DNA of 64,000 bases from an uncultured Chloroflexia bacterium (GTDB taxonomy: Bacteria; Chloroflexota; Limnocylindria; Limnocylindrales; CSP1-4), in the NCBI GenBank assembly GCA_963712745.1, contig CAVQJC010000017.1, positions 160,001-224,000 of the forward strand, in the 5' to 3' direction. The translations under genes were made by a program, and so were the position numbers. Positions 1,938 to 20,897 of the stretch are shown here, piece by piece. The notes beneath the pieces were generated by a model, which was given only the letters and a program-made list of their open reading frames with translations, made no database searches and had not been told where the DNA came from. Numbering within the stretch: the first letter of the stretch is position 1; the number at the start of each line of letters is the position of its first letter.

Positions 1938-3617
1938 CTACGCCCTGGCCAGCTTCTTGTAGCGGATGCGGTGCGGCTGGTCGGCCGCTGTCCCCAACTC
2001 CTTGCGCCGGAAGGCCTCGTAGTCGCTCACGTTCCCCTCGAAGAAGCGCACTTGGGAATCGCCCTCGAAGGCGAGGATGTGGGTCGCGATCCGGTCGAGG
2101 AACCAGCGGTCGTGGGAGATGACCACGACGCAGCCCGGGAACGACTCCAGGCCGGCCTCGAGCGCTCGCAGCGTGTCCACGTCGAGGTCGTTGGTCGGTT
2201 CGTCGAGCAGCAGCACGTTGCCACCCGTCTGCAGCAGCTTGGCGAGGTGCACCCGGTTCCGCTCGCCACCCGACAGTTGGCCGACGAGCTTCTGCTGGTC
2301 GGTGCCACGGAAGTTGAACGATGAGACATAGGCGCGGGCCGGGACCTCGCGTGCCCCGGTCTTGATGAACTCGGCACCCTGGGTGATCTCCCCGAATACC
2401 GTCTTGTCGGCGGCCAGGTCGTCGCGCTCCTGGTCGACATAGCTCAGCGCGACGGTGTCACCGATCGCGATCGACCCGGCGTCGGGTGCCTCCTGCCCGA
2501 CGAGCATCCGGAACAGCGTCGTCTTGCCGGCGCCGTTGGGTCCGATGATCCCGACGATGCCGGCCCGCGGCAGCGAGAACGTCAGGTCCTCGATGAGCAG
2601 CTTCTCGCGGTAGCCCTTGCGCAGGCCGGCGACATCGATGACCTTGTCACCGAGCCGCGGCCCCGGGGGGATGGCGATCTCGAGCTCGCGGGCGCTGGCC
2701 TTGTCGTCGTTCGCCTCGGCCAGGAGTCGCTCGTAGGCTGACAGTCGAGCCTTGCCCTTGGCCTGACGCGCCTTCGCACCCATGCGCACCCATTCGAGCT
2801 CGCGCGCGAGCGTCCGCTGCCGGGCATCGACCTGCTTCTGCTCGGTCGCCAGCCGCGCGAGCTTCTGCTCGAGCCAGCTCGAGTAGTTGCCACTGAACGG
2901 GATGCCGCGGCCCCGGTCGAGCTCAAGGATCCACTTGGCCACGTTGTCGAGGAAGTATCGATCATGGGTGATGGCGACGACGGTACCGGCGTATTCGGAC
3001 AGGAAGCGCTCCAGCCATTCGACCGACTCGGCATCGAGGTGGTTCGTCGGTTCGTCGAGCAGCAGCAGGTCCGGGTGGCGCATGAGCAGTCGTGCGAGCG
3101 CCACGCGGCGCTTCTCGCCGCCGGAGAGCGTCCTGACGTCGGCGTCGTCGGGCGGGCAACGGAGCGCGTCCATCGCGATGTCGACGTTGCGCTCGAGGTT
3201 CCACGCGTCCGCGGCTTCGATGCGGTCCTCGAGGACCGCCTGCTCGGCGCCGATCGCGTCGTAGTCGGCGTCGGGATCGGACCAGCGGGCCATGACCGCG
3301 TTGTACTGGTCGATGAGCGACTGGACCTCGCGGACGCCGTCGAGCACGTTGCCCTTGACGTCCTTCGCGGAGTCGAGCCCGGGCTCCTGCTCGAGGTATC
3401 CGACGGTGAAGCCCGGGGTCAGCCGAGCCTCGCCGTTGTAGCCGTCGTCGAGCCCGGCCATGATCTTGAGCAGGCTCGACTTGCCGGCGCCGTTGGGCCC
3501 GATGACCCCGATCTTGGCGCCGGGATAGAAGGACAGCGAGATGTCCTCCAGCACGGTCCGGTCGGGCGGATAGTGCCGGGCGAGCTTGTACGCGGTGTAG
3601 ATGAATTCGGCTGGCAT
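1938..3617 (-). CDS. ettA: Energy-dependent translational throttle ABC-F protein
   Basis: 559 aa with two ABC domains. N-terminus DISLSFYPGAKIGVIG and C-terminus QPHRIRYKKL are characteristic. Confidence 0.95.
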   Translation of the reverse strand: MPAEFIYTAYKLARHYPPDRTVLEDISLSFYPGAKIGVIGPNGAGKSSLLKIMAGLDDGYNGEARLTPGFTVGYLEQEPGLDSAKDVKGNVLDGVREVQSLIDQYNAVMARWSDPDADYDAIGAEQAVLEDRIEAADAWNLERNVDIAMDALRCPPDDADVRTLSGGEKRRVALARLLMRHPDLLLLDEPTNHLDAESVEWLERFLSEYAGTVVAITHDRYFLDNVAKWILELDRGRGIPFSGNYSSWLEQKLARLATEQKQVDARQRTLARELEWVRMGAKARQAKGKARLSAYERLLAEANDDKASARELEIAIPPGPRLGDKVIDVAGLRKGYREKLLIEDLTFSLPRAGIVGIIGPNGAGKTTLFRMLVGQEAPDAGSIAIGDTVALSYVDQERDDLAADKTVFGEITQGAEFIKTGAREVPARAYVSSFNFRGTDQQKLVGQLSGGERNRVHLAKLLQTGGNVLLLDEPTNDLDVDTLRALEAGLESFPGCVVVISHDRWFLDRIATHILAFEGDSQVRFFEGNVSDYEAFRRKELGTAADQPHRIRYKKLARA

Positions 3618-3699: not shown

Positions 3700-3801
3700 C
3701 ATCCTCCGCGCCCCGGCCATCGGGTCAAGCGCCGGACGGACCTGGGTCCCGCCTGGCCATGGCGGCGACGACCAGACCAAACCCGCTATTCATTATGTTT
3801 G
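3700..3801 (+). repeat. L + R repeat (R right arm divergent: tcattatgttt)
   Basis: catcctccgcgccccggccatcgggtcaagcgccggacgg ... ccatggcggcgacgaccagaccaaacccgctattcat. Confidence 0.9.
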
Positions 3802-3840
3802 CTGAAGCCAGCCGACCCCTGTGCTAGTCCTCGCTCGCGC

Positions 3841-4500
3841 CTACCCCTCGACGGGCAGGAACTCGAAGGTCTCGGCGATGGAGAGCCAGTCGGGGTTGGG
3901 AGCCTCCTCGCCACCACACGTGATGCCGTAGATCGTCGAGTCGTCCTGCAGCAGGAACTGCGTGCCCGCGAACGGTGTGGGTCAGTCTGGATCGACGAAG
4001 GTGTGATCGATGCGAACCGCCTCGCCCGCTGGAAGCGTCACGACGGTAACCGTCGCGCCGCCAGGGTATCGATCGTCGGCCTGGAGGCGGGCGACGTGCT
4101 CTGCCACCAGTGAGTCGAGTGGGACGATCGCAGCCATGACCTCGACCCCGCAGTAGCCTGGGACTTCCTGGGGGCCCACGTACGGCATCGCCAGGACGGG
4201 TGACTCCTCGCTGACGGCCTCGTAGAGCCAGCTGAGATCAGCGGCATAGGTCGAGTCGGTCACGTTGCTGAGCATCTCGCCTAGCGAGCCGGCATCGAGC
4301 CCAGACCGGCGGACCCAAGCCCAATCATCGGGAAACGCCAGCGCGAAGCCAGCACCGGGCACCTCCACTCGACCACCCAGGCCAACCGGTCCGGGCGACG
4401 GTTCCCGTGCCACCACCCCAGTCCCTAGTACTAGGACCAGCAGCCCTGCCAGCAGTCCGACTCGCTTGCCCACCACGTCCCCCATCCTGCTTGTCGTCAC
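3841..4500 (-). pseudogene. Family-A secreted PsbP-like protein interrupted by an in-frame TGA at 3982-3984
   Basis: Frame continues past the TGA as PTPFAGTQFLLQDDSTIYGITCGGEEAPNPDWLSIAETFEFLPVEG*. Signal peptide and GFALAFPDDW motif present. Confidence 0.8.
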
Positions 4501-4548
4501 ATCCTCTGCACCCCGCTCAGCGGGTCAAGGGCCGGACGGCCCGGCGGC
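4500..4548 (+). repeat. L repeat only (minus-strand promoter)
   Basis: catcctctgcaccccgctcagcgggtcaagggccggacggcccggcggc. Confidence 0.9.
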
Positions 4549-4568
4549 GTGACGGAGCTGGAGCGCGA

Positions 4569-4866
4569 TCAGTCCGGATCGAACGAAGCGGCGAGCGTCT
4601 GGAGCGCGGTTACCGCATCAGGGGCGTTGGAGGCCCGCCGATCACCGGACGGCCCCGAGGCCACGGCCTGCCACTCGCCGGATGGACGATCTCCCGAGCC
4701 ATCGGACGAGACGTAGTGCACGCCGGAACAGCACCCACCCATCAGGCAGCCGGTCCTCTGTTGCCAGCCAGGCGCTCGTCAGCCGATCGGGAACGGTCCC
4801 GTCTCGTCGGACCGTGGTCTGGCCGAACGCCGTCGCGACCGTCGCCAACTTCGCCCATACCATCAC
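4569..4866 (-). pseudogene. Small hypothetical cassette gene with a 1-nt frameshift near 4726
   Basis: MVWAKLATV..AWLATEDRLPDGWVL joins in another frame to SGVHYVSSDG..GEWQAVASGPSG..ALQTLAASFDPD*. Lies downstream of an L promoter. Confidence 0.5.
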
Positions 4867-4908
4867 GTCACCCCTGCCCGAGCGACCGGCACTCCCGGTC
4901 AGTACTCC

Positions 4909-5010
4909 CATAGTCCGCGCCTCGGTCAGCGGGTCAAGGGCCGGACGGCCCGGCGGCATGCGTGGCCATGGCGGCGACGACGAGACCAAACCCGCTATAC
5001 ATGGCGATTC
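4909..5010 (+). repeat. L + R repeat
   Basis: ..tcagcgggtcaagggccggacggcccggcggc..ccatggcggcgacgacgagaccaaacccgctatacatggcgattc. Confidence 0.92.
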
Positions 5011-5058
5011 CGTGCGGCCCACTGGAGCTTCGTGGACGCCCGCGAGAGAATCGTCGTA

Positions 5059-5131
5059 GCGGGAGGCAATGACGCGCGGCCCCAGCCCTGGCCGCCTGGA
5101 CCGTGCCGAGTCACTGGCGGACCCGACCCGC
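5059..5131 (+). ncRNA. c-di-GMP-II-like riboswitch aptamer (copy 1)
   Basis: GCGGG-AGGCAATGA-CGCGCGG..TGGCCGCCTG-GACCGTGCC-GAG-TCACTGGCGG-ACCCGA-CCCGC follows the class II layout (GGAAACAAUGA..UGGGCACUUG..GAGUUAGUAGUGCAACCGACC). Pairings GCGGG/CCCGC, CCGCC/GGCGG and GCGCGG/CCGTGC. Lies just 5' of the GAGGGGG RBS. Confidence 0.72.
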
Positions 5132-5149
5132 GCTTGTGAGGGGGATGTC

Positions 5150-6031
5150 ATGCGTACGTTGCGGCTGTCCCTGGTCGGGACGGTCATCGTGATGCTGCTC
5201 GGCGGGCTGGGCAGCACGGTGCTCGCGCACGATGAGATGCCTGGCGTCGGCGTCGAGGTCTTGGGCGACCTCGGCGCCATCCCAGGCGAGGCCATCCCCG
5301 AGGACGCCGTCCGTGTCGCGTTCGCTCGGACTAGCATCGAGCCGGGCGTGACCGGCGAGGTCGGCTCGGCCCAGCCCCATGAATGGGCCAGCCTGGAATG
5401 CGTCCAGCACGGTTCGCTCACGTTCACGGACAGCGACCGGACAGTGATCTGGCGGGTGGGCGAAACGACCGAGGACCTCCCCGCTGGGACGACCGCCAGC
5501 GTGAACACCGGGGATCTCGTGCTCTTCTATGACGGCGGGGCCGGGAGGAGTTTCGCGAACGCGGGGCCCGAGACGTACGTGACGTACTCCGTGGCGGTCG
5601 GCGACAGTGATGACCCGGCGGAGCCACCGGTCCTGCCCCCCGGCGTCTCCTGGCGGCTCCTCGTCTTCGACGTGCTGGCACCCGAGACCGTGGATCTCTG
5701 GTTCACGACACCGGTCGCGGTGGCGTTCGAGCGACTCGCGTTCTACCCCGGCGGCCAGCTCGTGCTTGGGTCTGACGAGGCCGGGTTGCTGCGCCTCCTG
5801 GCGCTCGAAGAAGGTCGCCTGGAGAGCGGCTTCGCGGCCCCATCCGAGGTCGCCGGGGCGCTGACCGACTCGGTCAGGTTCATCGCGCCCGACGCCGACA
5901 TTCTCACGTCGGGATCATTCGCGGACGACACGGTCTACGTGATCCGAAACGAGTCGGACGAGCCTGCGATTGTCCTGAGCGCCACGCTGACGCATGTTGA
6001 TGGGACCACGGAGGCCAAGCCCGCCGAGTAA
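5150..6031 (+). CDS. Secreted tandem cupin-like protein (cassette)
   Basis: ATG after GAGGGGG, signal peptide MRTLRLSLVGTVIVMLLGGL, two degenerate cupin repeats (V.HGSLT..GD..FAN.G and LEEGRLE..IRNESDEPA). Ends in PAE*. Confidence 0.7.
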   Translation: MRTLRLSLVGTVIVMLLGGLGSTVLAHDEMPGVGVEVLGDLGAIPGEAIPEDAVRVAFARTSIEPGVTGEVGSAQPHEWASLECVQHGSLTFTDSDRTVIWRVGETTEDLPAGTTASVNTGDLVLFYDGGAGRSFANAGPETYVTYSVAVGDSDDPAEPPVLPPGVSWRLLVFDVLAPETVDLWFTTPVAVAFERLAFYPGGQLVLGSDEAGLLRLLALEEGRLESGFAAPSEVAGALTDSVRFIAPDADILTSGSFADDTVYVIRNESDEPAIVLSATLTHVDGTTEAKPAE

Positions 6032-6034
6032 CCC

Positions 6035-6106
6035 CATCGCGCCGCCTCGGCTGCCTGCCGCCCTGCCCCATCCTCCGCGCCCCGCTCAGCCGGTCAAGGG
6101 CCGGAC
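6035..6106 (+). repeat. L' tail followed directly by an orphan L repeat
   Basis: catcgcgccgcctcggctgcctgc (6035-6058), then catcctccgcgccccgctcagccggtcaagggccggac (6069-6106). Confidence 0.85.
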
Positions 6107-6201
6107 TGACTGGTGGCATGGGTGGCGGCAGGCTACCCGGCATCACGTGGTCCCTTCGGCACTGTCGGTCCGAGTGGACACCTCGGTATCGTCGAGCCGC
6201 C

Positions 6202-6516
6202 ATGGCGGACCCGCTGGAGCCTGACACGCGGCCGGACGAGCCGCACATCACAAACCCATCGATGCGCGAGGCGGAAGAGCCGGACCTAGCGCGCGTGGCC
6301 GAGGAGTGGAGGCGAGAGACACGCCAAGCGAAGGACCAGCGGAACGCCGAAACCGAGGAGTGGCTGAAGGCGTTCGAGGCCAAGCATGAGAACCCGAGGG
6401 ACACCTTCCTCGGGCTGCTACTGCATGGTTGCTGTTGGTGGTCCCTCATGAGAATGGCGTGCGCCACCCTGCTGGTCGTGTTCGTCGCAGCTTGGGCCCG
6501 GCGTGCGAGGGGGTAG
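6202..6516 (+). CDS. Hypothetical protein with C-terminal membrane anchor (cassette)
   Basis: ATG 9 nt after TATCGT. Acidic helical N-terminus and hydrophobic C-terminus, followed by L'+R. Confidence 0.55.
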   Translation: MADPLEPDTRPDEPHITNPSMREAEEPDLARVAEEWRRETRQAKDQRNAETEEWLKAFEAKHENPRDTFLGLLLHGCCWWSLMRMACATLLVVFVAAWARRARG

Positions 6517-6521
6517 CACCT

Positions 6522-6591
6522 CATCGCGCCGCCTCGGCTACCTGCGCCATGGCGGCGATGACCAGACATAACCCGCTATTCATGGCGATTC
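6522..6591 (+). repeat. L' + R repeat
   Basis: catcgcgccgcctcggctacctgcg-ccatggcggcgatgaccagacataacccgctattcatggcgattc. Confidence 0.92.
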
Positions 6592-6609
6592 TGGAGTAGT
6601 GGTCAGTGG

Positions 6610-7791
6610 CTAGCCCGCCTCGGCGGGCAGGAACTCGAACGAGTCGGCGATGGAGAGCCAGCGGTCGTCGAAGCCGTGGTAGCCAAAGCAGCCAATCAGA
6701 GCTTCGGGGCCGTCGGTAGCGAGAGCGGTCTCGAAATCGATCAAGAACGTCGAGTTGTACGTCGCCCTGCCGGTGTCCGCTCGGGTGACGTAGTCGATGC
6801 GGTGAGACGGGCCGGCCGGCAGCATCAGCTCCGACACGGTCGGCCCCTCGGCCAGCCCAGGGTCGCCTCTCGCGTGATCGAGTGCGCCGGCGAGGACGTC
6901 ATCGAGCGAGCTGCCGACGGGCAGATCCGTGGATTGGACCAGGCACGTCGTGGCCGGCCACCCATCGGGCTCGACCGGTCCGAACACCAGGGCGTGGAAC
7001 GCGTACCCCTGGTCCGACAGCGCGCTCAGTTGCTCCAGCATCGTCGCGGTCGTATCGACCCAGCGCGGATGTGTCTGACGGACGAGGTCAAGGTTCTCCT
7101 CCGCGCTTGCCTCGTTCGGGTCAAGGATGACCCAGTCGTCCGGAAAGGTCAGTGCAAATCCTGGAGCGATAGCCTCCAGGCGACCGCCCATGCCGGCCGT
7201 GTCGCGGGGGCGGAGCCACTCGAGTGACTCGGCGATAGCGCGCCACCTATCCGGGGTCGGATGCGGACCTTCACACGTGAGGATGACGCTCCAGGCATCA
7301 CCGCCGATCATGAAGCCCTCGCGGTAGAGCGCCACCTCGTCCGTGTCTGGCGGCACGACCTGCCATCGATAAGTGACGGCGGGGCCGGCCGGGAGCTCGG
7401 TCTGCGAAATGCCCTCGTACGCATGGACACTGGGCTCTGCCCTGATGGCCGCATCCAGCCCTCCGTAGAACCCCGGGTCGAGGACCTCTTCTCCGTCCCA
7501 CGGGACCACGTCCAGATCGCAAGCGTCGCCCGATGGCGACATCAGGAAGAGTTCTGACTCAGTCTCCTCATCGAGCAGGCCGACCTGCGCGCCGGCGGCC
7601 TGCAACTGGGCGTCGAGTTCCACGGTGAGGTCGAAGGCGATCCAATCGGTCGGGATCGATACGGCGATGCCGTGCCTGGGCATCTCCACGCGCCCACCGA
7701 ACCACGGTGGAGGCTGCGACTCTGACGCCACCACCCCAGACCCCAACGACAGAACCATCAGTAGCGCCAGCAACCCGACTCGCCTGCCCAT
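6610..7791 (-). CDS. Family-A secreted protein with two PsbP-like domains (cassette)
   Basis: Signal peptide, then twice GGR(V/L)E..G(I/F)A..P.DW..C..LPAGP..C..DRW.(A/S)IA.S.E.L. Confidence 0.8.
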   Translation of the reverse strand: MGRRVGLLALLMVLSLGSGVVASESQPPPWFGGRVEMPRHGIAVSIPTDWIAFDLTVELDAQLQAAGAQVGLLDEETESELFLMSPSGDACDLDVVPWDGEEVLDPGFYGGLDAAIRAEPSVHAYEGISQTELPAGPAVTYRWQVVPPDTDEVALYREGFMIGGDAWSVILTCEGPHPTPDRWRAIAESLEWLRPRDTAGMGGRLEAIAPGFALTFPDDWVILDPNEASAEENLDLVRQTHPRWVDTTATMLEQLSALSDQGYAFHALVFGPVEPDGWPATTCLVQSTDLPVGSSLDDVLAGALDHARGDPGLAEGPTVSELMLPAGPSHRIDYVTRADTGRATYNSTFLIDFETALATDGPEALIGCFGYHGFDDRWLSIADSFEFLPAEAG

Positions 7792-7799
7792 AACGTCTC

Positions 7800-7892
7800 C
7801 ATCCTCCGCGCCCCGCGCCGCGGGTCAAGGGCCGGACGGCCCGACGGCCATGGCGGCGACGACCAGACCAAACCCGCTATTCATGGCGATTT
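7800..7892 (+). repeat. L + R repeat
   Basis: catcctccgcgccccgcgccgcgggtcaagggccggacggcccgacgg-ccatggcggcgacgaccagaccaaacccgctattcatggcgattt. Confidence 0.92.
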
Positions 7893-7960
7893 CGGAGTCG
7901 CGTTCGCGCCAGCGTGCTGACTGCGTTGGTGACCCCTCACGCTTGGCCTGATGCCCGCGC

Positions 7961-8350
7961 TCAGCGGTAGCCGAGGACGAGCGTTAAGAACAACAACAGG
8001 ATGACGAAGAAGCTCACGGCGGCGAGGACGAAGCTCACGAGACCGACGATCAACCACGCCCCGAGGCCATGGAGCCCCATTCGACGACCGGTCCCGAGGA
8101 TCACCAGCGGGACCAGGATCAGCCCAAGTAGCCCCAACCCGAGCCCGAGGTCGATACCTGCCGCTGAGTCCACCACGGCACCGACTCCGGAGAGCAGGAA
8201 CCAGGCGCCGATGAGCGTAGCCGTGGCCAGGACAGTGGTCGCCGATGCTGCCTTGGAGCGGTCCCGGAGCGCGTTGTACAGCCCCTCGCCCACCCAGCCG
8301 TACAGCCTCAAGTCATCACTCACGGCACCGCTCCCCGCGATGGTCTGCAT
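7961..8350 (-). CDS. Small multi-pass membrane protein (cassette)
   Basis: Three hydrophobic segments, downstream of an L promoter. Start may be 8350 or 8323. Confidence 0.6.
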   Translation of the reverse strand: MQTIAGSGAVSDDLRLYGWVGEGLYNALRDRSKAASATTVLATATLIGAWFLLSGVGAVVDSAAGIDLGLGLGLLGLILVPLVILGTGRRMGLHGLGAWLIVGLVSFVLAAVSFFVILLLFLTLVLGYR

Positions 8351-8380
8351 CGCGATCAGGTTTGTGCCCGACCATCCGCC

Positions 8381-8474
8381 CATCCTCCGCGCACCGGCCA
8401 GTGGGTCAAGGGCCGGACGGCATGCATCGCCATGGCGGCGACGATCAGACATAATCAGCTGTACATGGCGATTC
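8381..8474 (+). repeat. L + R repeat (spacer variant tcagctgt)
   Basis: catcctccgcgcaccggccagtgggtcaagggccggacgg..ccatggcggcgacgatcagacataatcagctgtacatggcgattc. Confidence 0.9.
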
Positions 8475-8523
8475 TCGATTGGCGCTCGAGAGCCGATGGA
8501 CGCCCGCGAGAGAATCGCAGGTA

Positions 8524-8593
8524 GCGGGAGGCGATGAGACGCGGCCGAGCAATGTCCGCCTGGACCGCCCGAGCCACTGGCCAACCCGGCCCG
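8524..8593 (+). ncRNA. c-di-GMP-II-like riboswitch aptamer (copy 2, diverged)
   Basis: gcgggaggcgatgagacgcggcc..tgtccgcctggaccgcccgagccactggccaacccggcccg, homologous to 5059-5131. Confidence 0.6.
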
Positions 8594-8613
8594 AGGATGA
8601 GAGGGGGGACTTC

Positions 8614-9150
8614 ATGCGCACGTTGCGGCCGTCACTGGCGGCGATCATCATCTTGGTGCTGGCCATGACATCGGGCAGCGCGGTCTTGGCCCAGTCGGAC
8701 GACGCGCCTGCCGCCTGGGTCGAAGCGACGAGCATCGCGCATCCCTGCGTCGGACTCGGGGAACCCGAGGAGTACATCGAGGAGACGCACGTGACCCGTC
8801 TCCGAGGCTCGGCTCTCGACTGCAGCATGGACCTTGGCGACGCCCGCCTGAAGGGCACTGCGGATATGAGCTGGAACTACGACTGCTACGACGCGGTCGG
8901 GGCCGGCTGCGTGCGTTGGGGCTCCGTGGTGCTGACTGGGCCCGATGGCACATGGGAGGGTACGTTCAGCGGCGTAGAGAGCCCCGCAGGGTCCGGTGCT
9001 TCCTTCTCTGCTGAGTACATCGAGCTCGCGGGCAGGGGTGCCTACGATGGGCTTGCGTACGTGGGTCAGGCAGCCAACCAGTTCAGCACTTCTGGACGGT
9101 GGTTCGGCATCGTGTACGAAGGCGAGTTGCCGTCTCCGTCCGCCGAGTAG
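8614..9150 (+). CDS. Family-B secreted beta-rich protein (cassette)
   Basis: Signal peptide MRTLRPSL.. and motif C..DARLKG..N.DC..C..WG..GPDGTWEG..L.G.GAYDGL. Ends in SAE*. Confidence 0.75.
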   Translation: MRTLRPSLAAIIILVLAMTSGSAVLAQSDDAPAAWVEATSIAHPCVGLGEPEEYIEETHVTRLRGSALDCSMDLGDARLKGTADMSWNYDCYDAVGAGCVRWGSVVLTGPDGTWEGTFSGVESPAGSGASFSAEYIELAGRGAYDGLAYVGQAANQFSTSGRWFGIVYEGELPSPSAE

Positions 9151-9153
9151 TCG

Positions 9154-9244
9154 CATCGCGTCGCCTCGGCTGCTTGCGGCTCAGGATCGGCGTGCATAGC
9201 CACGGCGGCGACGACCAGACCAAACCCGCTATACATGGCGATTC
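9154..9244 (+). repeat. L' + R repeat
   Basis: catcgcgtcgcctcggctgcttgcg..ccacggcggcgacgaccagaccaaacccgctatacatggcgattc. Confidence 0.9.
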
Positions 9245-9260
9245 CTGTTAGCGAGTCGGG

Positions 9261-10394
9261 TCAGGTCGGCAGTTCGGCCAGCACGTCCTCGATGGCCATC
9301 CCACCGCTGCCACTGACGATGAACAGGACACCGCGAACGGTATACATGAACGACCACGTCGAACCGTCATCCGCCTCCTCCGCGTCATCCGTCCAGACGG
9401 TACGTTCACCGTAGGTCCGAGTCGGCCACTCCGAGAGCGGCGGGGTCACAGAGGTGCCCATCTCGCTGCGCATGATCTGTACCAGTTGCTCCATCACGAC
9501 TACGGGCGGGACTCCAGCAACTCGGATGGCCTCAACGACGTACTGCTCCGGCACCGACCGGTCAGCCGTACGCGCATGTGCCACCTGCAGGTCCCTGAAC
9601 TCCTGTCCGAGGTCGGAGATCAAGCGTCGGAACAACCGGCGAGCGTCTTCCTCGGTCAGCACCAGAGACGAGCTGCTCTCGACGGACAGCGGAGTATCGC
9701 CGATCACGTGCGGCAGCAGGGAGATCACCTGGTCGGACGGGAGCGGCAGGGTCTCGACGGTCTCGGCGATGGAGAGCCAGTCGTCGTCGGGGCGTTGGAA
9801 AGCTGAGCACGTCATCGTCAAGATGTCGCCGCCGACGTCGATCAGATACATCGTGACGGGGCCCCAGACGTCACGGTCGTAGGCATTCTGGGCGGTCGCT
9901 CGAAGTACCAGACCGGGACCGGTCGGCACGTCCACCGGCATCGGCGGGTCGGCATCCACCATCGACTCCGCGTCCACCATCGTCTGGTACAGACCTTCGG
10001 CGAAGGCATCGAGCCGCCAGCCTTCCCCGAGCCTTGGATAGAACAAGCAGCTCTCCGTCTCCGCGAGGGAGCACACTGAGGACGAGAGGTCCATACCCAA
10101 TAGCGGGAAGGATCCCTCAGCGGCCAAGAGCGAGAGGTTCATGTGCAGGCACGAGAGCCCAGCTGCAGTCAGTCCACCATCAGGCGAGTCCATGGCGCGG
10201 ACCTGTGAGTCGATGTCGGCGCCAGGGTCGAACGCCACCCAGCCCTCGGGGAGGGTGACCGCGAAGCCGTACTCAGCGATCTCCACGCGCCCGCCCATCC
10301 ACGGCGGAGGCGAGGCATCCTCCGCCCGCGCGGACCCGAATACAGTCGCCAGCAGACTGACCACAAGCAGCGCCACGCTCGCCAGCTGTCGCAT
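9261..10394 (-). CDS. Secreted fusion of a family-A PsbP-like domain and a family-C domain (cassette)
   Basis: GGRVEI..GFAVTLPEGW..DDDWLSIAETVE, then a domain ending IEDVLAELPT that resembles 11958-12557. Confidence 0.8.
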   Translation of the reverse strand: MRQLASVALLVVSLLATVFGSARAEDASPPPWMGGRVEIAEYGFAVTLPEGWVAFDPGADIDSQVRAMDSPDGGLTAAGLSCLHMNLSLLAAEGSFPLLGMDLSSSVCSLAETESCLFYPRLGEGWRLDAFAEGLYQTMVDAESMVDADPPMPVDVPTGPGLVLRATAQNAYDRDVWGPVTMYLIDVGGDILTMTCSAFQRPDDDWLSIAETVETLPLPSDQVISLLPHVIGDTPLSVESSSSLVLTEEDARRLFRRLISDLGQEFRDLQVAHARTADRSVPEQYVVEAIRVAGVPPVVVMEQLVQIMRSEMGTSVTPPLSEWPTRTYGERTVWTDDAEEADDGSTWSFMYTVRGVLFIVSGSGGMAIEDVLAELPT

Positions 10395-10417
10395 TCTCGT
10401 ACCTGTGCGGATGCCCT

Positions 10418-10510
10418 CATCCTCCGCGCCCCGCTCAGCGGGTCAAGGGCCGGACGGCCCGGCGTCCATGGCGGCGACGACCAGACATAACCCGCTATAC
10501 ATGGCGATTC
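10418..10510 (+). repeat. L + R repeat
   Basis: catcctccgcgccccgctcagcgggtcaagggccggacggcccggcgt-ccatggcggcgacgaccagacataacccgctatacatggcgattc. Confidence 0.93.
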
Positions 10511-10530
10511 GTACCGTCCGCTCGGCCGAG

Positions 10531-11136
10531 CTACGCTCCGGCGGGCAGGAACTCGAAGGTCGCGGCGATGGACAGCCAGTCATCCTCGGGTGCTCCTCGC
10601 GAACAGCCGAGGAAGTACCACCGGTGTCCATCACCGAAGAGGTACATAGCGTATCGGTCAGCGGTCTCCAGCGACGCCCAGTCGGGGTACCCGCCGGGCT
10701 CGCCCCAGAAGTTCGCGTCTGAGGGCACCAGGTCCATGGTGACCCGTCCGACGCGTCCAGCCGGCAGGTCGATGACCGCGCCGGTGACGTTCCTGGCGGC
10801 GAGACTGTCGTCCCATCGCGAGACCAACGCATCGAGCCAGTCGTCAATCGACTCGACCGGCAGGACCGGCTCAACGACGGACGAGTCAAAGACCTCACAG
10901 TAGCCACCCGGCCCCGAGGAGGTCAGGCCCGGCAAGTACGGGGGGTGATCCAGCATCCCAATGACCTCCCACCCGTCGGGGAAGGCGATGGCGATTCCCA
11001 GATCCGGGAAGGTCCGGATGGTGGCGGCAGGCTGCCCCGTCACCTCCGGGCTCGCCGACGGTGACTGCGCCGTGATGGCGCTCGACGTCGTGGCTAGGAG
11101 ACACGCCACCGCAACCGAGATGATGAGCCGTCGCAT
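10531..11136 (-). CDS. Family-A secreted single PsbP-like domain protein (cassette)
   Basis: Signal peptide and GIAIAFPDGW..C..LPAGR..C..EDDWLSIAATFEFLPAGA*. Confidence 0.8.
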   Translation of the reverse strand: MRRLIISVAVACLLATTSSAITAQSPSASPEVTGQPAATIRTFPDLGIAIAFPDGWEVIGMLDHPPYLPGLTSSGPGGYCEVFDSSVVEPVLPVESIDDWLDALVSRWDDSLAARNVTGAVIDLPAGRVGRVTMDLVPSDANFWGEPGGYPDWASLETADRYAMYLFGDGHRWYFLGCSRGAPEDDWLSIAATFEFLPAGA

Positions 11137-11161
11137 GATCGACTCCCGTGCGCGATGCCCC

Positions 11162-11266
11162 CATCCTCTCCGCCCCGCTCAGTGGGTCAAGGGCCGGACG
11201 GCCCGGCGGCGTGCCATCGCCATGTACGGGCGATGACCAGACCAAACCCGCTATTCATGGCGATTC
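11162..11266 (+). repeat. L + R repeat
   Basis: catcctctccgccccgctcagtgggtcaagggccggacggcccggcggc..gaccagaccaaacccgctattcatggcgattc. Confidence 0.92.
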
Positions 11267-11377
11267 TCGCTTGGGGCGGAGTTCGCAGCAACGGCTCGTG
11301 GGACGCCTGCGCCTCGAGAATCGTCTACCTGGTACAGGCGGGATCGACTCGTCAGCGTGAGAATCGAGGGAGAGACC

Positions 11378-11899
11378 ATGGGAACGATCAGGATCGGCAT
11401 CATCACGCTCCTCACCATCGGCCAGCTGGCGGGCTCAGCGGTCAGTGTCGCAGCGCAGGACGATGAAGCCGTCGTCGTGAGCGGGGGCATGAGTCCGATT
11501 GGCGGCGCGAGCGTGCCGTGCGAGCTGGAGGAGGATTTCACCGAACTCGACGACGGCACGGCCAGCTGGACCTGGTGCTTCGGTCTCGTGATGGACGATC
11601 CACGGCTCACCGGCGACGGCTCCGTCGTCATGGCTGAGCGGGCGTACGACGGCTTCGGCCTGATCTCCTCGAGGGTGGAGATAGCCAACGAAGGAGGGTC
11701 GTGGTCGGGCAACGGCACCAGGGTCTTCATCGACGGAGATCCGGGGATCGATATCGAGCAACTCGTACTCACCGGGGCCGGTGGATATGGCGGCCTGACG
11801 GCCATCCTCTATGCCGATCCGGAGTTCGGCTTCCGCGGATTGGACTCGTGGAACGGCGTCATCATCTCGGGCGAGATGCCAGGACTACCTGCCGAGTAG
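11378..11899 (+). CDS. Family-B secreted beta-rich protein (cassette)
   Basis: ATG after GAGGGAG, signal peptide, DDPRLTG..GGSWSG..VLTGAGGYGGLTAI. Ends in LPAE*. Confidence 0.75.
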   Translation: MGTIRIGIITLLTIGQLAGSAVSVAAQDDEAVVVSGGMSPIGGASVPCELEEDFTELDDGTASWTWCFGLVMDDPRLTGDGSVVMAERAYDGFGLISSRVEIANEGGSWSGNGTRVFIDGDPGIDIEQLVLTGAGGYGGLTAILYADPEFGFRGLDSWNGVIISGEMPGLPAE

Positions 11900-11957
11900 A
11901 CCCCTCGCGCCACCTCCGCCTCGGCGGGCAGGAACTCGAAGGTCTCGGCGATGGAGG

Positions 11958-12557
11958 CTATGGCAGTTCGGCCAGCACGTCCTCGATGGTCGGTTCGGTC
12001 GGTGCGTCGGGGTCAGAGCCAACGCGACCAAGCCGCACTCTGAACAGGACCTCGCCCTTCGGGTAGAGGTACTCGATGAAGCGGTCGTCGGCGCCATCGA
12101 AGGTAACGACCACGACGCGGCGGTCACCGATGTCCTGCCAGTCCATAGCGGCCACTGGCAGTTGGTCGGCGACAGCTTGGGACTCGCGTCGCAACCCCTC
12201 GAACACGCCTGCCCAGAAGTCTGCCGCCTGAGCACCCACGATGCGTGTCGCCTCGATACTCAGGAACCGGTCTCCTTCCGGGTGAACTCCATAGCCGCCT
12301 GCGGCTCTGACATCCTCCGGCTCCAGTCCGAGTGGCACCAAGACATCACGCCAGCCTGCGGTCCACTCCGCATCGGCGGAAGAGACAGCCGAGAAGTCCA
12401 GGATGGACAGGTCGATGTCCCCGACCTGTGACGGGATGATGGACGCCAAGTCATCGGGTGCGAACGGCGGCGTGGCCTCCGCTGACGGCGACTGAGCCAA
12501 CGCCCCAGACCCCAGCGACAGAACCATCAGCCCTGCCAATAGCCCGGCTCGCTTCAC
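11958..12557 (-). CDS. Family-C secreted protein (cassette)
   Basis: GTG after AGGAGG. Signal peptide KRAGLLAGLMVLSLGSGALA resembles that of 7791. Ends in IEDVLAELP*. Confidence 0.75.
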   Translation of the reverse strand: MKRAGLLAGLMVLSLGSGALAQSPSAEATPPFAPDDLASIIPSQVGDIDLSILDFSAVSSADAEWTAGWRDVLVPLGLEPEDVRAAGGYGVHPEGDRFLSIEATRIVGAQAADFWAGVFEGLRRESQAVADQLPVAAMDWQDIGDRRVVVVTFDGADDRFIEYLYPKGEVLFRVRLGRVGSDPDAPTEPTIEDVLAELP

Positions 12558-12584
12558 GGCTCCACCCCTCCTGCGGATGCCGCT

Positions 12585-12686
12585 CATCCTCCGCGCCCCG
12601 AGCCCCGGGTCAAGGGCCGGACGGCCCGGCGGCACGCTCAGCCCTGGCGGCGACGACCAGACATAACCCGGTATTCATGGCGATTC
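12585..12686 (+). repeat. L + R repeat
   Basis: catcctccgcgccccgagccccgggtcaagggccggacggcccggcggc..ccctggcggcgacgaccagacataacccggtattcatggcgattc. Confidence 0.92.
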
Positions 12687-12734
12687 CGTGCGGCCCACTG
12701 GAGCCTCGTGGACGCCCGCGAGAGAATCGTCGTA

Positions 12735-12807
12735 GCGGGAGGCAAAGACGCGCGGCCCCAGCCCTGGCCGCCTGGACCGTGCCGAGTCACTGGCGGACCC
12801 GACCCGC
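12735..12807 (+). ncRNA. c-di-GMP-II-like riboswitch aptamer (copy 3)
   Basis: Identical to 5059-5131 except caaTga becomes caaAga. Confidence 0.68.
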
Positions 12808-12825
12808 GCTTGTGAGGGGGATGTC

Positions 12826-13359
12826 ATGCGTACGTTGCGGCTGTCCCTGGTCGGGACGGTCATCGTGATGCTGCTCGGCGGGCTGGCTGGAGCGGTGCTT
12901 GGCGCAGGACGAGGAGGAAGCGCCCGTATGGGTGACCCTCCTCGCGCAGGAGAACTGCCGGATGGAGGCGGACCCCGGCACCTACGAGCCAGGCGCAGGA
13001 CGCGCCAAGAAGATCCGCGACCTGCCCCTCGCTTGCGACCTCACCTACAGCGATGCCCGCCTTAGCGGGCCGAGCCACATGCTCTACAACGAGGACTGCT
13101 TCGAGTCGGGCATCTGCGTCGGGTGGGGGACCATCGGATCGACGGCTCCGACGGATCGTGGACCGGGTGGTGGCACGAGATCGACGACGAGGACGACGAT
13201 ACGAGCTTCCACATCGTGCTGACCGGCGACGGCGGTTACGAGGGACTCACCGCCATCATCTACTCACTCGGGGTCTGGGAAACGTTCCCCGACGAGTACG
13301 GTGTCATCTACCGGGGCGATCCGCCGCCAGGTCCCGAGGTGCTGTTGACTGCTGAGTAG
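12826..13359 (+). pseudogene. Family-B secreted protein with two compensating frameshifts (about 12899 and 13134)
   Basis: Three ORF pieces join as MRTLRLSL..AVL / AQDEEEAPVW..DARLSG..NEDC..CVGWGT / RIDGSDGSWTG..LTGDGGYEGLTA..LTAE*. Confidence 0.75.
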
Positions 13360-13587
13360 CAGATCACCAGGCGACCGCGCCACGCTCACCGCCGCGAGCG
13401 AGATCCATACAGGGATAGACACCGATACGACGGTCATCTACCCCTGCTCGAGCTGAGCCGCACCGACATCGACCCCACGGCGCCCTGAGAACAGCACCGC
13501 CACCCTGGAGCAGCACTTCCCGCTGCCGCGTTCATGACCTCCGCCTCTTGAACCGAGCGGTACTGCTGTGGCCTCATACCCATCTGA

Positions 13588-13661
13588 GCGGGAGGCGATG
13601 AGGCACGGCCCACACCCTGGCCGCTGGGACCGCGTCCGAGCCACTGGCGAAACCGGCCCGC
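13588..13661 (+). ncRNA. c-di-GMP-II-like riboswitch aptamer (copy 4)
   Basis: gcgggaggcgatgaggcacggcc..tggccgctgggaccgcgtccgagccactggcgaaaccggcccgc retains the canonical AACCG junction. Confidence 0.68.
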
Positions 13662-13679
13662 GCAGCAAAGGGGGATGTC

Positions 13680-14579
13680 ATGCGGACGTTGCGACTGTCC
13701 CTGTCGGTGACGGTCATCTTGGCACTGCTGAGCGGACTGGGCAGTGCGGTCGTGGCTCAGTCGGAGGAGCCGAACCAACAGAGCGCGTGGCCGAGCCTCA
13801 CGACGTCCCTCGAGTACGGCGAAGACCCAAAGCAGGTTATCCATGCCTACGAGCCAGAGCCTCGGACCGCGCCACGGCCCGCCGTCGTCTTCTTCTCCGG
13901 CGGCGGATACGACATCGGGGATCCGCTGTGGGTCCTCGACTCTGCACGCCAGATGGCCGAGGCTGGCTACGTGGCCTTTGCGGCGGGCTACCGCCTCCAC
14001 GATCCGTCGACGGGCACGAACCCATGGCCGGCACAACTCGAGGATGCCCAGGCAGCGGTCCGCTGGATCCGCGCTCACGCGGCGGACTACGGCGTCGACC
14101 CCGACCGGATCTGCGCCCTCGGCCATTCCTCCGGTGGCCACCTCGCGTCGCTGGTCGGCATGACCGATGCCCGCGACACGAGTGACCCTGACATGGCGGG
14201 CATCTCGAGCCGCGTCACCTGCGTCGTCAGCGTCTCGGGCGACGTCGACCTCACGATCGGCAACCCGTACCCGGAGCAGACGGCGGTCTACGAGAGCCTG
14301 CTGGGCGCCAGCTACGAGGATGACCCCGCCGCGTGGCGTGCGGTCTCGCCCGCCTACCTCGTCGATGCGGAGACCGTGCCCATCCTCATCATCCACGGCA
14401 CCCGCGACACCAACGTCGACGTTCAGGCGTCCCGGAACCTGGCGGCAGCCCTCGCCGAGGTCGACCGGGAGTTCGTCTACGCCGAGATAGACGCCGACCA
14501 CTTCGACATCTTCGAGCAGCCCCCGACCCTGCCGCTCACCGAGACGTTCCTCGTCTACCAACTCCATCCAGAGGAGTGA
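13680..14579 (+). CDS. Secreted alpha/beta hydrolase (HSL/BD-FAE-like esterase) (cassette)
   Basis: Oxyanion motif FSGGG, nucleophile elbow GHSSGG, IHGTRD and ADH. Carries the shared MRTLRLSL signal peptide. Confidence 0.88.
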   Translation: MRTLRLSLSVTVILALLSGLGSAVVAQSEEPNQQSAWPSLTTSLEYGEDPKQVIHAYEPEPRTAPRPAVVFFSGGGYDIGDPLWVLDSARQMAEAGYVAFAAGYRLHDPSTGTNPWPAQLEDAQAAVRWIRAHAADYGVDPDRICALGHSSGGHLASLVGMTDARDTSDPDMAGISSRVTCVVSVSGDVDLTIGNPYPEQTAVYESLLGASYEDDPAAWRAVSPAYLVDAETVPILIIHGTRDTNVDVQASRNLAAALAEVDREFVYAEIDADHFDIFEQPPTLPLTETFLVYQLHPEE

Positions 14580-14739
14580 TGACCGACCGGTCGATGGCGG
14601 CTCGATGGACGGCGAACCCAGAGCGAGTTGAAGAGATACGCGGCGCCAGCGCAAGCGCACCCGGCTGGAGCGTGGGCCGAGACCAAGGAGTAGGCGAGAG
14701 CTAGGAGTCGGCGACCAGCCGTGCCCACCGGCTGATTCG

Positions 14740-14830
14740 CTCGCGCCGCCTCGGCTGCCTGCGCCATGGCGACGACGACCAGACGTCGTACGCGTGGCGA
14801 CCAGACCAAGCCCGCTATACATGGCGATAC
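14740..14830 (+). repeat. L' + composite R (short variant followed by full core)
   Basis: tcgcgccgcctcggctgcctgcg-ccatggcgacgacgaccagac-gtcgtacgcgtggcg-accagaccaagcccgctatacatggcgatac. Confidence 0.88.
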
Positions 14831-14865
14831 GCCGGGTCGGCAGGTCAAGCGCGATACGGCCGCGC

Positions 14866-15840
14866 CTACTCCTCGGCGGGTCGGAACTCGAACGTCTCGG
14901 CGATGGACTGCCAACGATCCTGAGGGGCTGCAACCCCGAAGCAAGTAAGGGAGTAGTAGGACGTCCCGTCGGTCACGAGGTAGGCGCTCCTCTCGAGGTT
15001 CGCGCCCTCATCCACGTCATCGATGCGGACAGCCGAACCGCTGGGCAACTCGATGGCGGTCGTGGCTAGCGTCGCAGGCGCCGACCGGAACATGGCGATG
15101 AACGCCTCCACGAAGCCCTCGAGGTCGCTCCACGCCACGTCGGCGTGGCGTCCGTGGGGCCAGTACCAAGCACGGCAGGTGTCCTCGCCCGGCATGAACG
15201 CCAGCATCACCATCTGGCCCGTGGTGGTCGGCCTGTCTTCCCGCGTGAATACGACTGACCAGTCCTCGGGGAGGGTGAGCGCGAAGCCCGCTTCGGGCAC
15301 CCAGCCTCGCAAGCGACGTTCCAGGTTCGTCGGCTGGTCCTGCCGAAGCGGGTCGATAGCGATCGAGTTCGCGATAGACAGCCAGCGATCGGTCGGCGGG
15401 TCGGTGCTGGTGCAGGTCAGCACGCGATAGGACGAGCCGACCTCCCAGTAGTAGCTCGTCACCAGGTACACACCATCGGGCCCATAGTCCTGCCACGCCT
15501 CGGTGCGAAGGGCCGCTCCCTGCGGGGTCGCGACTGTCACGGCGGAGGCGGCGGCAGGACCGCCTCCTTGCTCGACCAACGCGGCCAGGCAAAGGGTCTC
15601 ATCGGTGTCGTACAGCGTGAGCAATGGCGTCACATCGCCTCGCGTGGTCAACTCGTACGGATCGCCGGGCGTGGCCTCCCAGAGGTGCGGCGGGACGACC
15701 CAGAGCCCGGAGCCCAGGCTCTCGACACGACCTGCGGACCAGAACGTCGCTTCGGTCGTTGGTGTCGGCGACTGCGCGGCCACACCATTCGCAACCATCG
15801 CGAGGGTCAGCCCGGCCAGCATTCCAGATCGTCTGCGCAT
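14866..15840 (-). CDS. Family-A secreted protein with two PsbP-like domains (cassette)
   Basis: Signal peptide MRRRSGMLAGL.., then ..LTCTSTDPPTDRWLSIANSI.. and GFALTLPEDW..LTC..QDRWQSIAETFEFRPAEE*. Confidence 0.8.
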   Translation of the reverse strand: MRRRSGMLAGLTLAMVANGVAAQSPTPTTEATFWSAGRVESLGSGLWVVPPHLWEATPGDPYELTTRGDVTPLLTLYDTDETLCLAALVEQGGGPAAASAVTVATPQGAALRTEAWQDYGPDGVYLVTSYYWEVGSSYRVLTCTSTDPPTDRWLSIANSIAIDPLRQDQPTNLERRLRGWVPEAGFALTLPEDWSVVFTREDRPTTTGQMVMLAFMPGEDTCRAWYWPHGRHADVAWSDLEGFVEAFIAMFRSAPATLATTAIELPSGSAVRIDDVDEGANLERSAYLVTDGTSYYSLTCFGVAAPQDRWQSIAETFEFRPAEE

Positions 15841-15849
15841 CACTTGCCC

Positions 15850-15943
15850 CATCCTCGCCTGCCGGCTCAGTCGGTCAAGGGCCGGACAGCCCGGCGGCAT
15901 GCATCGCCATGGTGCCGACGACCAGACGGCGTACGCCTGGCGA
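15850..15943 (+). repeat. L + terminal short-variant R (right end of array)
   Basis: catcctcgcctgccggctcagtcggtcaagggccggacagcccggcggc..ccatggtgccgacgaccagac-ggcgtacgcc-tggcga. Confidence 0.85.
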
Positions 15944-16020
15944 GTGGAGGAGCTCGAGACGCGAAGACGCGGCACCCCTCCACGGAATGCCGCGCCGTCG
16001 TCCGCGAGTGACTGCCGGAA

Positions 16021-16998
16021 TCAGCCCATGGTCAGGGCCATCACCGCCTTCTGCGCGTGGAGCCGGTTCTCTGCCTCGTCGAAGGCCGCCGACTTGGGCC
16101 CGTCGATGACCGCGTCGGTCACCTCCACGCCACGGTCCGCCGGCAGCGGATGCATCCAGATGGCGTCGTCCGCGGTCATGGCCATGCGACGCTCGTCTGA
16201 GATCCAGTCGGTGTACTTGGACGCGATCTTGGCGCCCTCCTCGTCGGAGACTCCCAGCATGTGAGCACCCCACGACTTGGCGTACACGATGTCGGCGCCG
16301 TCGAAGCCGGCGTCGAAGTCGTCCAGCTTCTCGAACGCCCCGCCGGCCCGGGCCGCGTTGGCCTCGGCCTCAGCCATGATGTCCGGCATCAGCTCGAACT
16401 CGGGCGGATGCACGAGCTTGACGTCCATGCCGAAGCGGGTCGCGGCCAGCAACAGCGACTGCGGCACCGAGATGGGCTTCTGGTAGCTCGAGGCGTAGGC
16501 CCAACTGATGGTGATCGACTGGCCCTTGAGGCGGCCCTTCTTCTCGATGATGGTCATCAGGTCCGCGAGGATCTGGAAGGGGTGGTAGATCTCGCACTGC
16601 ATGTTGAGCACAGGCACGCGGGATGCCTCCGCCACGTCGCGGATGTACTGGTTGCCCTCACCGAAGGTGACGTGCCGGATGGCGATGCCGTCGTTGTAGC
16701 GGCCCAGGATCTCGCCGATCTCCGTGGCCGTGTCGCCGTGCGCGATCTGCGTGGTGCGGCTCTCCATGAACATGCCGTGCCCGCCGAGCTGGGCCATGCC
16801 CGCCTCGAACGAGGCACGCGTGCGTGTGCTGGAGAAGAAGAAGAGCATGGCCAGCGTCTTGTCCAGCAGGTAGGCGTGGCGCTCGCCCAGGGCACGCTTG
16901 CGCTTGAGCTCGAAGGCCACGTCCAGCGCGGTCTCGATCTCCTCGTTGGTCCAGTCCGACAGCGCGATGAGGTCGCGGCCACGGAGTCCGGTCTGCAT
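16021..16998 (-). CDS. Ornithine/YgeW-like carbamoyltransferase
   Basis: SSTRT, HPFQ and MHPLP motifs. The SYQKPISVPQS loop resembles knotted YgeW-type enzymes. Confidence 0.85.
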   Translation of the reverse strand: MQTGLRGRDLIALSDWTNEEIETALDVAFELKRKRALGERHAYLLDKTLAMLFFFSSTRTRASFEAGMAQLGGHGMFMESRTTQIAHGDTATEIGEILGRYNDGIAIRHVTFGEGNQYIRDVAEASRVPVLNMQCEIYHPFQILADLMTIIEKKGRLKGQSITISWAYASSYQKPISVPQSLLLAATRFGMDVKLVHPPEFELMPDIMAEAEANAARAGGAFEKLDDFDAGFDGADIVYAKSWGAHMLGVSDEEGAKIASKYTDWISDERRMAMTADDAIWMHPLPADRGVEVTDAVIDGPKSAAFDEAENRLHAQKAVMALTMG

Positions 16999-17008
16999 GA
17001 TGCGCCCC

Positions 17009-17965: not shown

Positions 17966-17985
17966 CGGGGGTTCTCTTCCTCCTG

Positions 17986-19413: not shown

Positions 19414-20897
<1,484 letters not shown>

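Follow-up and report, generated by a model that had tools for sequence, protein, structure and literature searches.

Among platforms that accumulate and rearrange single-gene cassettes, integrons are, to our knowledge, the only one that is well understood. They depend on a single family of integrases and on folded attC sites, which vary in sequence between cassettes, share conserved core motifs and are targeted by insertion sequence (IS) elements of the IS1111 type. The 64,000-nt window analysed here, from an uncultured Chloroflexia bacterium of the Limnocylindrales (CSP1-4; assembly GCA_963712745.1, contig CAVQJC010000017.1, positions 160,001 to 224,000 of the forward strand), carries a polar array of short genes separated by a direct repeat of about 47 bp, hereafter R, with a variant site, R0, at its start. 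We give a probability of roughly one half to the interpretation that these sites mark a lineage-specific, polar, R0-anchored, integron-like platform whose autonomous units are exchanged at or near R.

Sedentary chromosomal integrons and clusters of attC sites lacking an integrase (CALINs, as defined in the IntegronFinder papers) share several traits with the R arrays: long series of co-oriented sites with one or two genes between them, a distinct first site at a fixed anchor, content that differs almost completely between related species, decay of the distal part, and sites that are targeted by IS110/IS1111-type elements. The R arrays differ from them in that R is one conserved sequence rather than a variable, folding attC, and in that no integron integrase (IntI) was found with it. 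Unlike integron cassettes, which share a common Pc promoter, each cassette here has its own promoter-like block or riboswitch, and both gene orientations are common. The arrays have so far been seen in one Chloroflexota genus only.

The pdif modules of Acinetobacter plasmids are enclosed by 28-bp dif-like sites that alternate in orientation around the module. Like the R units, they are bounded by short sites, and they are served by XerC/XerD encoded elsewhere; R differs in being 47 bp long and always direct. The dif-like motif CATAA-N6-TTATG has no site in the genome under study, and R therefore has no such dif-like core. In the tycheposons of Prochlorococcus, cargo units pile up at a fixed site between direct att-type repeats, many of them without an integrase of their own; the repeats there are fragments of tRNA genes, and the elements span several kb, with recognisable recombinases nearby. 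The R arrays likewise consist of units stacked at a fixed chromosomal site between direct repeats, but these units measure 0.6–2 kb, the repeat is not a piece of a tRNA gene and no recombinase lies near.

In clustered regularly interspaced short palindromic repeats (CRISPR), repeats of 24–48 bp alternate with spacers of 26–72 bp, whereas R copies in the window are 582–2144 bp apart with genes filling the intervals. From repetitive extragenic palindromes (REP), bacterial interspersed mosaic elements (BIME) and miniature inverted-repeat transposable elements (MITE), R is set apart by its confinement to arrays, its single orientation and the lack of a significant fold. The likeness to site-specific IS110/IS1111 elements lies in a DEDD-type element that is borne within R and flanked by AG, and this element is a parasite of R, not R itself. 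By the features tested, the R arrays are not integrons, CALINs, pdif modules, CRISPR or REP. An earlier interpretation of the window made from its letters alone (the sequence-only reading) had already denied that R is a complete attC hairpin, a CRISPR repeat or a REP palindrome, and folds, spacing and array restriction bear this out.

No described equivalent of the R arrays was found in the literature searched; the main text of one Limnocylindria genomics paper is silent on cassettes, integrons, riboswitches and recombinases. If R and R0 represent a second, unrelated site architecture with the same function, cassette platforms would have evolved more than once. The arrays belong to a poorly known soil phylum, their cassettes carry their own regulation, and R and R0 would then provide a search signature for the enzyme.

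The R repeat and the units between its copies

The genome under study (G000) comprises 4.2 Mb in 20 contigs and is 84.6% complete; C17 is the contig holding the window, labels of the type G001–G022 denote congeneric species, and labels such as L039 and L041 denote extracted array or locus stretches. R is read on the minus strand throughout. A repeat search of the window recovered, at the same starts and on a single strand (repeat family D2), all 11 copies listed in the sequence-only reading, and they were also found by nhmmer with a profile built from eight copies and run over the whole genome. A 20-nt R core, allowing at most 3 mismatches, gave nine matches in the window and none in 100 dinucleotide shuffles. 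All nine lie on one strand, as had been claimed for R despite the switching orientation of the genes between its copies.

The most distal well-kept copy lies at 3757–3802 (55.9 bits in nhmmer, as for all R scores below) and is followed, in the reading direction of R, by the conserved block L, described below, and an ABC-F gene. The copy at 4966–5011 (60.5 bits) stands between an L block (4907–4954) and a riboswitch unit. L also follows the copies at 7848–7893 (63.1 bits), 8430–8475 (55.9 bits; with a TGA within its would-be small open reading frame (ORF)), 10466–10511 (61.4 bits), 12642–12687 (59.2 bits) and 11220–11267 (47.3 bits), the last of which has a rearranged right end, homology to the array on contig C7 breaking in its right half. 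A second block, the tail L', follows the copies at 6547–6592 (62.5 bits), where gene ends converge, and 9200–9245 (60.6 bits), as well as a composite site at 14764–14831 made of R left arm, GTCTGG, R0 left arm, GTCTGG and a shared right half. The terminal variant R0 (15907–15952) forms the array start beside a carbamoyltransferase gene and matches R over half its length only. All of these sites are on the minus strand. To the left of R there is L at 8 of the 11 copies and L' at the other three, in agreement with the sequence-only reading. That reading had described a 45-bp repeat; the repeat is real, its length is closer to 47 bp, and the copies at 15907 and 14764 are the variant and the composite site, respectively.

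The array does not begin at 3700, where it had been placed. A degenerate R (556–601, minus strand, 25.1 bits) is found beyond the ABC-F and cupin genes in a decayed distal stretch, and three more copies sit just outside the window on its left side, at C17:157968, 158694 and 159816. On the other side, nhmmer detected no R to the right of 15952 in the window, where the last copy ends, so the absence of R beyond 16 kb holds within the window. Each of the ten R-to-R intervals contains one or two genes, as called with our own caller based on ORFs and GC content at third codon positions (GC3). That most of these short genes encode signal peptides was likewise supported, by a crude N-terminus heuristic, which found signal-peptide-like N-termini in 80 of 130 array genes versus 70 of 180 flank genes.

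Across the genome, nhmmer found about 40 R copies in three arrays and a mini-locus: 14–16 copies on C17 (157968–175927), 12 on C7 (67094–77013, in an array that reaches the contig end), 11 or 12 on C10 (37575–52714), and the mini-locus on C1. The R left arm occurs 21 times inside arrays and never outside, and R is thus not scattered singly in both orientations over the genome; for the right half the counts are 35 inside and 2 outside, for L 21 and 5, and for L' 11 and 7. All 16 array stretches from this genome and six congeners, with 115 copies between them, have R in a single orientation, as do all 26 multi-R contigs among 52 metagenome contigs of the Joint Genome Institute (JGI).

A conservation profile of 108 anchored copies gives R a length of about 47 bp with sharp edges. 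The left arm, AATCGCCATGAATAGCGGGT (20 bp, 0.7–1.4 bits per position), is separated by a variable triplet from the very conserved right half, GTCTGGTCGTCGCCGCCATGGC (22 bp, 1.6–2.0 bits per position). These copies show neither 3-nt periodicity nor third-position relaxation, and the copy at 8430 has a stop at codon 4; therefore, R is not coding. When five R sequences were folded as single-stranded DNA, four did not surpass their shuffles (z = -0.81, -0.54, +0.25, -2.79 and +0.48); R is therefore not a hairpin of the attC type, nor a REP palindrome. No intrinsic terminator coincides with R, no terminator-like fold was seen in it, and Rfam gave no match on R itself. A reading of R as a promoter for extracytoplasmic function (ECF) sigma factors was set aside, GGAAT being the least conserved part of R.

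Two types of self-contained unit lie between R copies. In the first, block L is followed by a minus-strand gene, which starts 10–40 nt past L. The L motif, TTGACC-N16-GAGGAT, suggests a sigma-70-type promoter for this gene; a strict promoter scan, whose consensus is that of E. coli, did not call it. L blocks (minus strand, repeat families D1 and D8) occur at 7798–7845, with others at 3698, 4498, 4907, 6067, 8371, 10416, 11160, 12583 and 15848. The second type runs in the opposite orientation and consists of a riboswitch, a plus-strand gene and the 24-nt tail L', which abuts R. L' (minus strand, family D11) is found at 6524–6545 and also at 6037, 9156 and 14741, flanked directly by the right half of R and by the stop codon of the plus-strand gene. 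After R, the 108 copies have L in 51 cases, L' in 23 and something else in 34; genes beside R run both ways, and R orientation is independent of gene orientation.

Between R and a plus-strand gene to its right lies a conserved block that the Rfam covariance models RF03170/RF03169 for c-di-GMP-II variants (gathering scores 47.9 for -GCG and 40 for -GAG) identify as a riboswitch, which the sequence-only reading had missed. Three window copies exceed gathering and are thereby predicted members of these families: a -GCG aptamer at 5053–5137 (58.2 bits, before the gene at 5150–6031), a second -GCG aptamer at 12729–12813 (57.0 bits, before a disrupted F0-family gene) and a -GAG aptamer at 13582–13667 (56.1 bits, before an esterase gene). 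A weaker match to the same family at 8518–8600 (35.6 bits, below gathering) precedes the gene at 8614–9150. All four are on the plus strand. The genome holds about 48 matches to this riboswitch family, 32 of them above RF03170 gathering and most in gene clusters without R, which is an unusually large regulon for 4.2 Mb; the R arrays link it to rapid turnover of secreted proteins. Examples of such clusters outside arrays, mostly with genes for small secreted proteins, are C5:76792-112590, C4:294836-297049, C10:168118-175432 and C20:4101-50890. Since L, L' and the riboswitch also occur without R, R belongs to the array and not to gene expression.

R0, array loci and turnover of content

R0 differs from R in the central part of its left arm, where GGCGTACGAY stands instead; its right half is that of R. 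R0 was found at the upstream end of every array examined. In the genome under study it lies at 15907 in the window and opens the C7 and C10 arrays as well; further examples come from G005, G013, G014 (twice), G021, G022 and six further contigs. Arrays occupy sites conserved across species, beside a carbamoyltransferase pair, his genes or the F38 block, and the outer flanks are unrelated between loci, the R0 left arm being common to all. At the carbamoyltransferase locus, the flank match between G000 and G005 stops within 1 nt of the R0 hit of G005, and the match between G009 and G000 ends at window position 15905, on the border of R0. The his-locus flanks of G021 and G022 cease to match inside the R0 hit of both. 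GC skew around the arrays gave no usable polarity.

The conserved flank at the R0 end of the window array (16021–19593) comprises two tandem aspartate/ornithine carbamoyltransferase paralogues and a pyridoxal phosphate (PLP)-dependent enzyme. Variable DNA of other kinds also gathers at this locus, which is a hotspot in general. In G009 (L088, G009:C3) and G001 (L089, G001:C2), two congeners that have no R arrays, nonribosomal peptide synthetase (NRPS)-like genes of 787–1521 aa adjoin the carbamoyltransferase genes. G009 retains a relic R0 beside its carbamoyltransferase genes, with the first bases of L' and then the NRPS-like genes; G001 has no R0 beside these genes.

The R0 left arm is itself duplicated: it is triplicated in tandem on C1, contained in the composite site at 14764 and present twice on C10. 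The C1 mini-locus (C1:113047-113330, L094) consists of three tandem 22-nt units, each an R0 left arm with GTCTGG, then the R right half and L, with one further R about 200 bp beyond. In G014, contig C12 (L041/L042) carries opposite arrays flanking a conserved gene block of about 27 kb, with R0 at each block edge, and the two arrays have in common a 99.4% identical unit with two R copies.

Content at conserved loci is far from fixed. Of 142 array genes, only 13 are shared across species, a gene being counted as shared when the array of another species holds a homologue with 55% identity or more; flank synteny ends at R0. Cassettes that are common to species stand at other ranks or at other loci: one is the first past R0 in G014 and about the eighth in G000, and an SRPBCC cassette belongs to the carbamoyltransferase-locus array in G000 and to the his-locus arrays in G005 and G021. 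R copies score lower the further they lie from R0 (pooled Spearman -0.38, p 0.0004, the copies being non-independent); by array, the trend is negative in six of eight, flat in one and reversed in one. This decay fits an arrangement with newer units near R0. Ends of homology blocks lie within 60 nt of R in 47 of 96 cases, against 13.2 expected. In public reads, the best runs held at most 24% of sampled words; Logan contigs were short and broke at repeated modules, and the joints recovered had sides under 40 nt, mostly linking paralogous riboswitch or L blocks.

Outside this genome, a 20-nt R pattern was found in 9 of 24 other sampled species of the genus and in none of 16 genomes of a neighbouring family. 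The right half of R was also sought in another 150 genomes of the bacterium's own family, spanning about 49 genera, and matched at most once per genome at 2 mismatches, compared with 32 matches in G000. Records of matching metagenome-assembled genomes (MAGs) are mostly labelled uncultured Chloroflexia or Chloroflexota, and one is a Candidatus Limnocylindrales. Exact 21-mer matches in MAGs labelled Alphaproteobacteria, Solirubrobacteraceae, Actinomycetota and Streptomyces carry neither left arm and were set aside as chance. Plasmid and phage collections gave no match to L plus R.

Explanations for the arrays

In the integron-like platform proposed here, R would be the junction site of a polar gene-cassette array, and each R-to-R unit would be its own transcription unit, composed either of L and a gene or of promoter, riboswitch, gene and L'. 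R0 would anchor the arrays at a few fixed chromosomal places. Whole units would be gained, lost and copied between arrays through recombination at or next to R, newer units entering nearer R0. A recombinase is presumed to bind R, with R as its crossover site. The proposal draws on the confinement of R to arrays, its uniform orientation, the position of R0 where flank synteny ends, the almost complete exchange of cassettes from species to species, the distal decay of R and the insertion of an IS110-family element at one position of R in two species, described below.

Several observations weigh against this proposal. The null expectation for block ends near R is weak, because R lies in intergenic DNA. 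The two youngest events, blocks shared between the C17 and C7 arrays (98.4% and 99% identity), do not stop at a single nucleotide, their ends falling within the right half of R, in L', at R0 and 45 nt short of R; a block of 300 bp and 94% identity (D4) spans L, R and riboswitch; gene fragments and fused L-L' junctions record rearrangements away from R; and the divergence of orthologous R copies roughly keeps pace with that of their cassettes. Three species without R arrays and at least 90% complete (G001, G009 and G010) have no R0 within 1.5 kb beyond their his or F38 flanks, and R0 is therefore not a pre-existing attachment site. Furthermore, no recombinase adjoins any array examined. The genome encodes two Xer-like genes (C4), one integrase (C12), an integrase fragment and a truncated serine recombinase, none of them near an array, and all matches to PF00589 are far from arrays. 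Counts of tyrosine recombinases in 49 genomes do not separate R-bearing from R-free species, and Xer-like genes are the only tyrosine recombinases that turned up in all searched genomes of the genus. The C12 integrase was not found in any of 48 congeners and was discarded on that ground as the enzyme of the arrays. The earlier statement that there is no integrase in or beside the array thus holds in this genome, and no recombinase whose distribution tracks R emerged. As to the site-specific capture locus that had been proposed, units bounded by R do behave as cassettes in polar arrays, but site-specific exchange is unsupported by the scattered block ends.

A more specific version of the platform remains tentative. 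R and R0 may be the substrate of a cassette-capture system independent of integrons, with R0 as docking site and R as cassette site, worked by a recruited housekeeping enzyme or by an unrecognised, possibly RNA-guided, family. If so, this soil bacterium would be shuffling a signal-controlled secretome of plug-and-play units.

The main rival explanation, itself somewhat doubtful, is that homologous recombination, unequal crossing-over and gene conversion account for the arrays on their own, R being kept for a role in cis such as regulator binding or insulation and no dedicated recombinase being involved. The boundaries of the C17/C7 blocks (98–99%), scattered over several conserved modules, fit the pattern expected of homologous recombination or gene conversion in such modules, and the 94% identical block across L, R and riboswitch points the same way, as do the failure of the searches in G000 and its congeners to find a recombinase and the fact that the F0 and F1 families of array genes, described below, are true paralogues with conserved ends. 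Homology does not readily explain, however, why R orientation ignores gene orientation or why unrelated genes stand between R copies, and it cannot seed the same R0 left arm at loci with unrelated flanks. The cis role is further weakened by the lack of a terminator-like fold in R; in addition, many clusters elsewhere combine this promoter, riboswitch and gene arrangement without any R, so that no cis-regulatory need for R is evident. Were plain homologous recombination the cause, the locus would still be a clear hypervariable secretome island with conserved junction modules.

That R is a selfish short repeat of the REP or MITE kind, or the footprint or target of an IS110-type element in hypervariable islands with no part in moving genes, is unlikely. 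This explanation draws on an IS110-family element that sits at the identical position within R in two species, with different cassettes around it: L039:17268-18719 in G022 (PF01548 and PF02371) and L043:11764-13015 in G013 (PF01548 only). Both junctions are identical and read GAATCGCCATGAAT / AG / CGGGTT, with AG on both sides of the element. About 70 nt inside the non-coding end of the element is an R-like stretch, CATAGCGGGTCGCCGGTCTCC, which could be an RNA guide of the type reported for IS110/IS1111. In two reports, IS110/IS1111-attC elements insert into repeated sites (PMC11208160, PMC11187229). The insertions show that R is a recognised repeated target and say nothing about its function. 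IS21 copies also occur within arrays, and long array stretches have no detectable R, for example L037 9371-14692. On the other hand, R is not dispersed, with no left arm outside arrays and only single, chance-like half matches in the 150 genomes of other genera; it is never inverted and not palindromic, and it has a distinct terminal variant, R0, at array starts. In G000, moreover, only distant IS110 homologues (about 27% identity) are found, with no R-like guide nearby. The IS21-type pairs, each an IstA-like protein with an rve domain and an IstB, lie inside arrays or at their edge at L039:14229-16495 and L039:1547-3954 (G022) and at L041:3901-5699 (G014).

A small product of R, either a peptide of about 19 residues (MNSGFGLVVAAMA...) or a small RNA, is very improbable. 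Several copies do have an ATG frame of 19–22 codons that runs without a stop across R and on into L or L', but the copy at 8430 has TGA at codon 4, many copies contain indels, and the lack of third-position relaxation, the shuffle-like folds in four of five sequences and the missing Rfam match on R speak against either product. More improbable still is a true integron remnant, that is, a CALIN with unusual attC sites, which the co-oriented sites, variable cassettes, distinct first site and lack of a nearby integrase would suit, since the best match to the integron integrase model TIGR02249 in this 84.6% complete genome is an Xer-like gene at 84.9 bits versus a 265-bit cut-off, the roughly 47-bp R forms no stable hairpin (z -2.8 to +0.5) and lacks the attC core motifs, all R copies share one sequence where attC sites differ between cassettes, and the cassettes have promoter-like blocks or riboswitches of their own.

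Cassette products and decayed units

Most array products belong to no Pfam or NCBIfam family. The dominant paralogous groups are F1, with the conserved C-terminus DWLSIAETFEFLP, and F0, with the motifs SDPRL, GxWxG and GVIYEG; searches of Pfam, NCBIfam and PDB sequences gave no name for the proteins of either group. Unrelated cassette genes in the window encode a BD-FAE esterase, an SRPBCC protein, a cupin and a small membrane protein, and those of other species include ECF sigma factors, a SecDF-P1-like lipoprotein and a beta-helix protein. The cassette genes thus represent unrelated families, and the locus is therefore not one paralogue array.

Five minus-strand genes of the window array belong to the F1 family of secreted proteins. 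The gene at 14866–15840 is the first cassette past R0; the product of 10531–11136 has only four homologues in 5.8 billion clusters; that of 9261–10394 is a further member; that of 6610–7791 ends in the C-terminal DRWLSIADSFEFLPAE and has no Pfam match; and the gene at 3843–4485 contains one in-frame TGA (3982–3984). On the plus strand, F0-group proteins are encoded at 5150–6031 (a secreted protein with no Pfam match), 8614–9150 (a secreted protein with the SDPRL, GxWxG and GVIYEG motifs) and 11378–11899, whose DNA is 98.4% identical to a cassette of the C7 array. The secreted BD-FAE/alpha-beta-hydrolase esterase (13680–14579, plus strand) has its counterpart, at 99% identity, in the cassette that opens the C7 array. 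The small membrane protein is encoded at 7961–8374 (minus strand), and its entire R-to-R unit is 85% identical to a metagenome contig. Behind the gene for secreted protein F27 (11958–12557, minus strand), a remnant of an F1 C-terminus persists out of frame (11900–11957).

Besides this remnant and the in-frame TGA at 3982–3984, decay within the window array includes a disrupted F0 gene (12826–13362), and at 6067–6146 an L block is joined straight to L' without R. Some of the broken window genes could be assembly errors. The ABC-F gene (1938–3617) and a secreted cupin gene (771–1802) separate the well-kept from the decayed stretch of the array. The ABC-F gene, of housekeeping type, is 94% identical to a copy in G014 just past the distal end of a different array, a position that hints at rearrangement between arrays.

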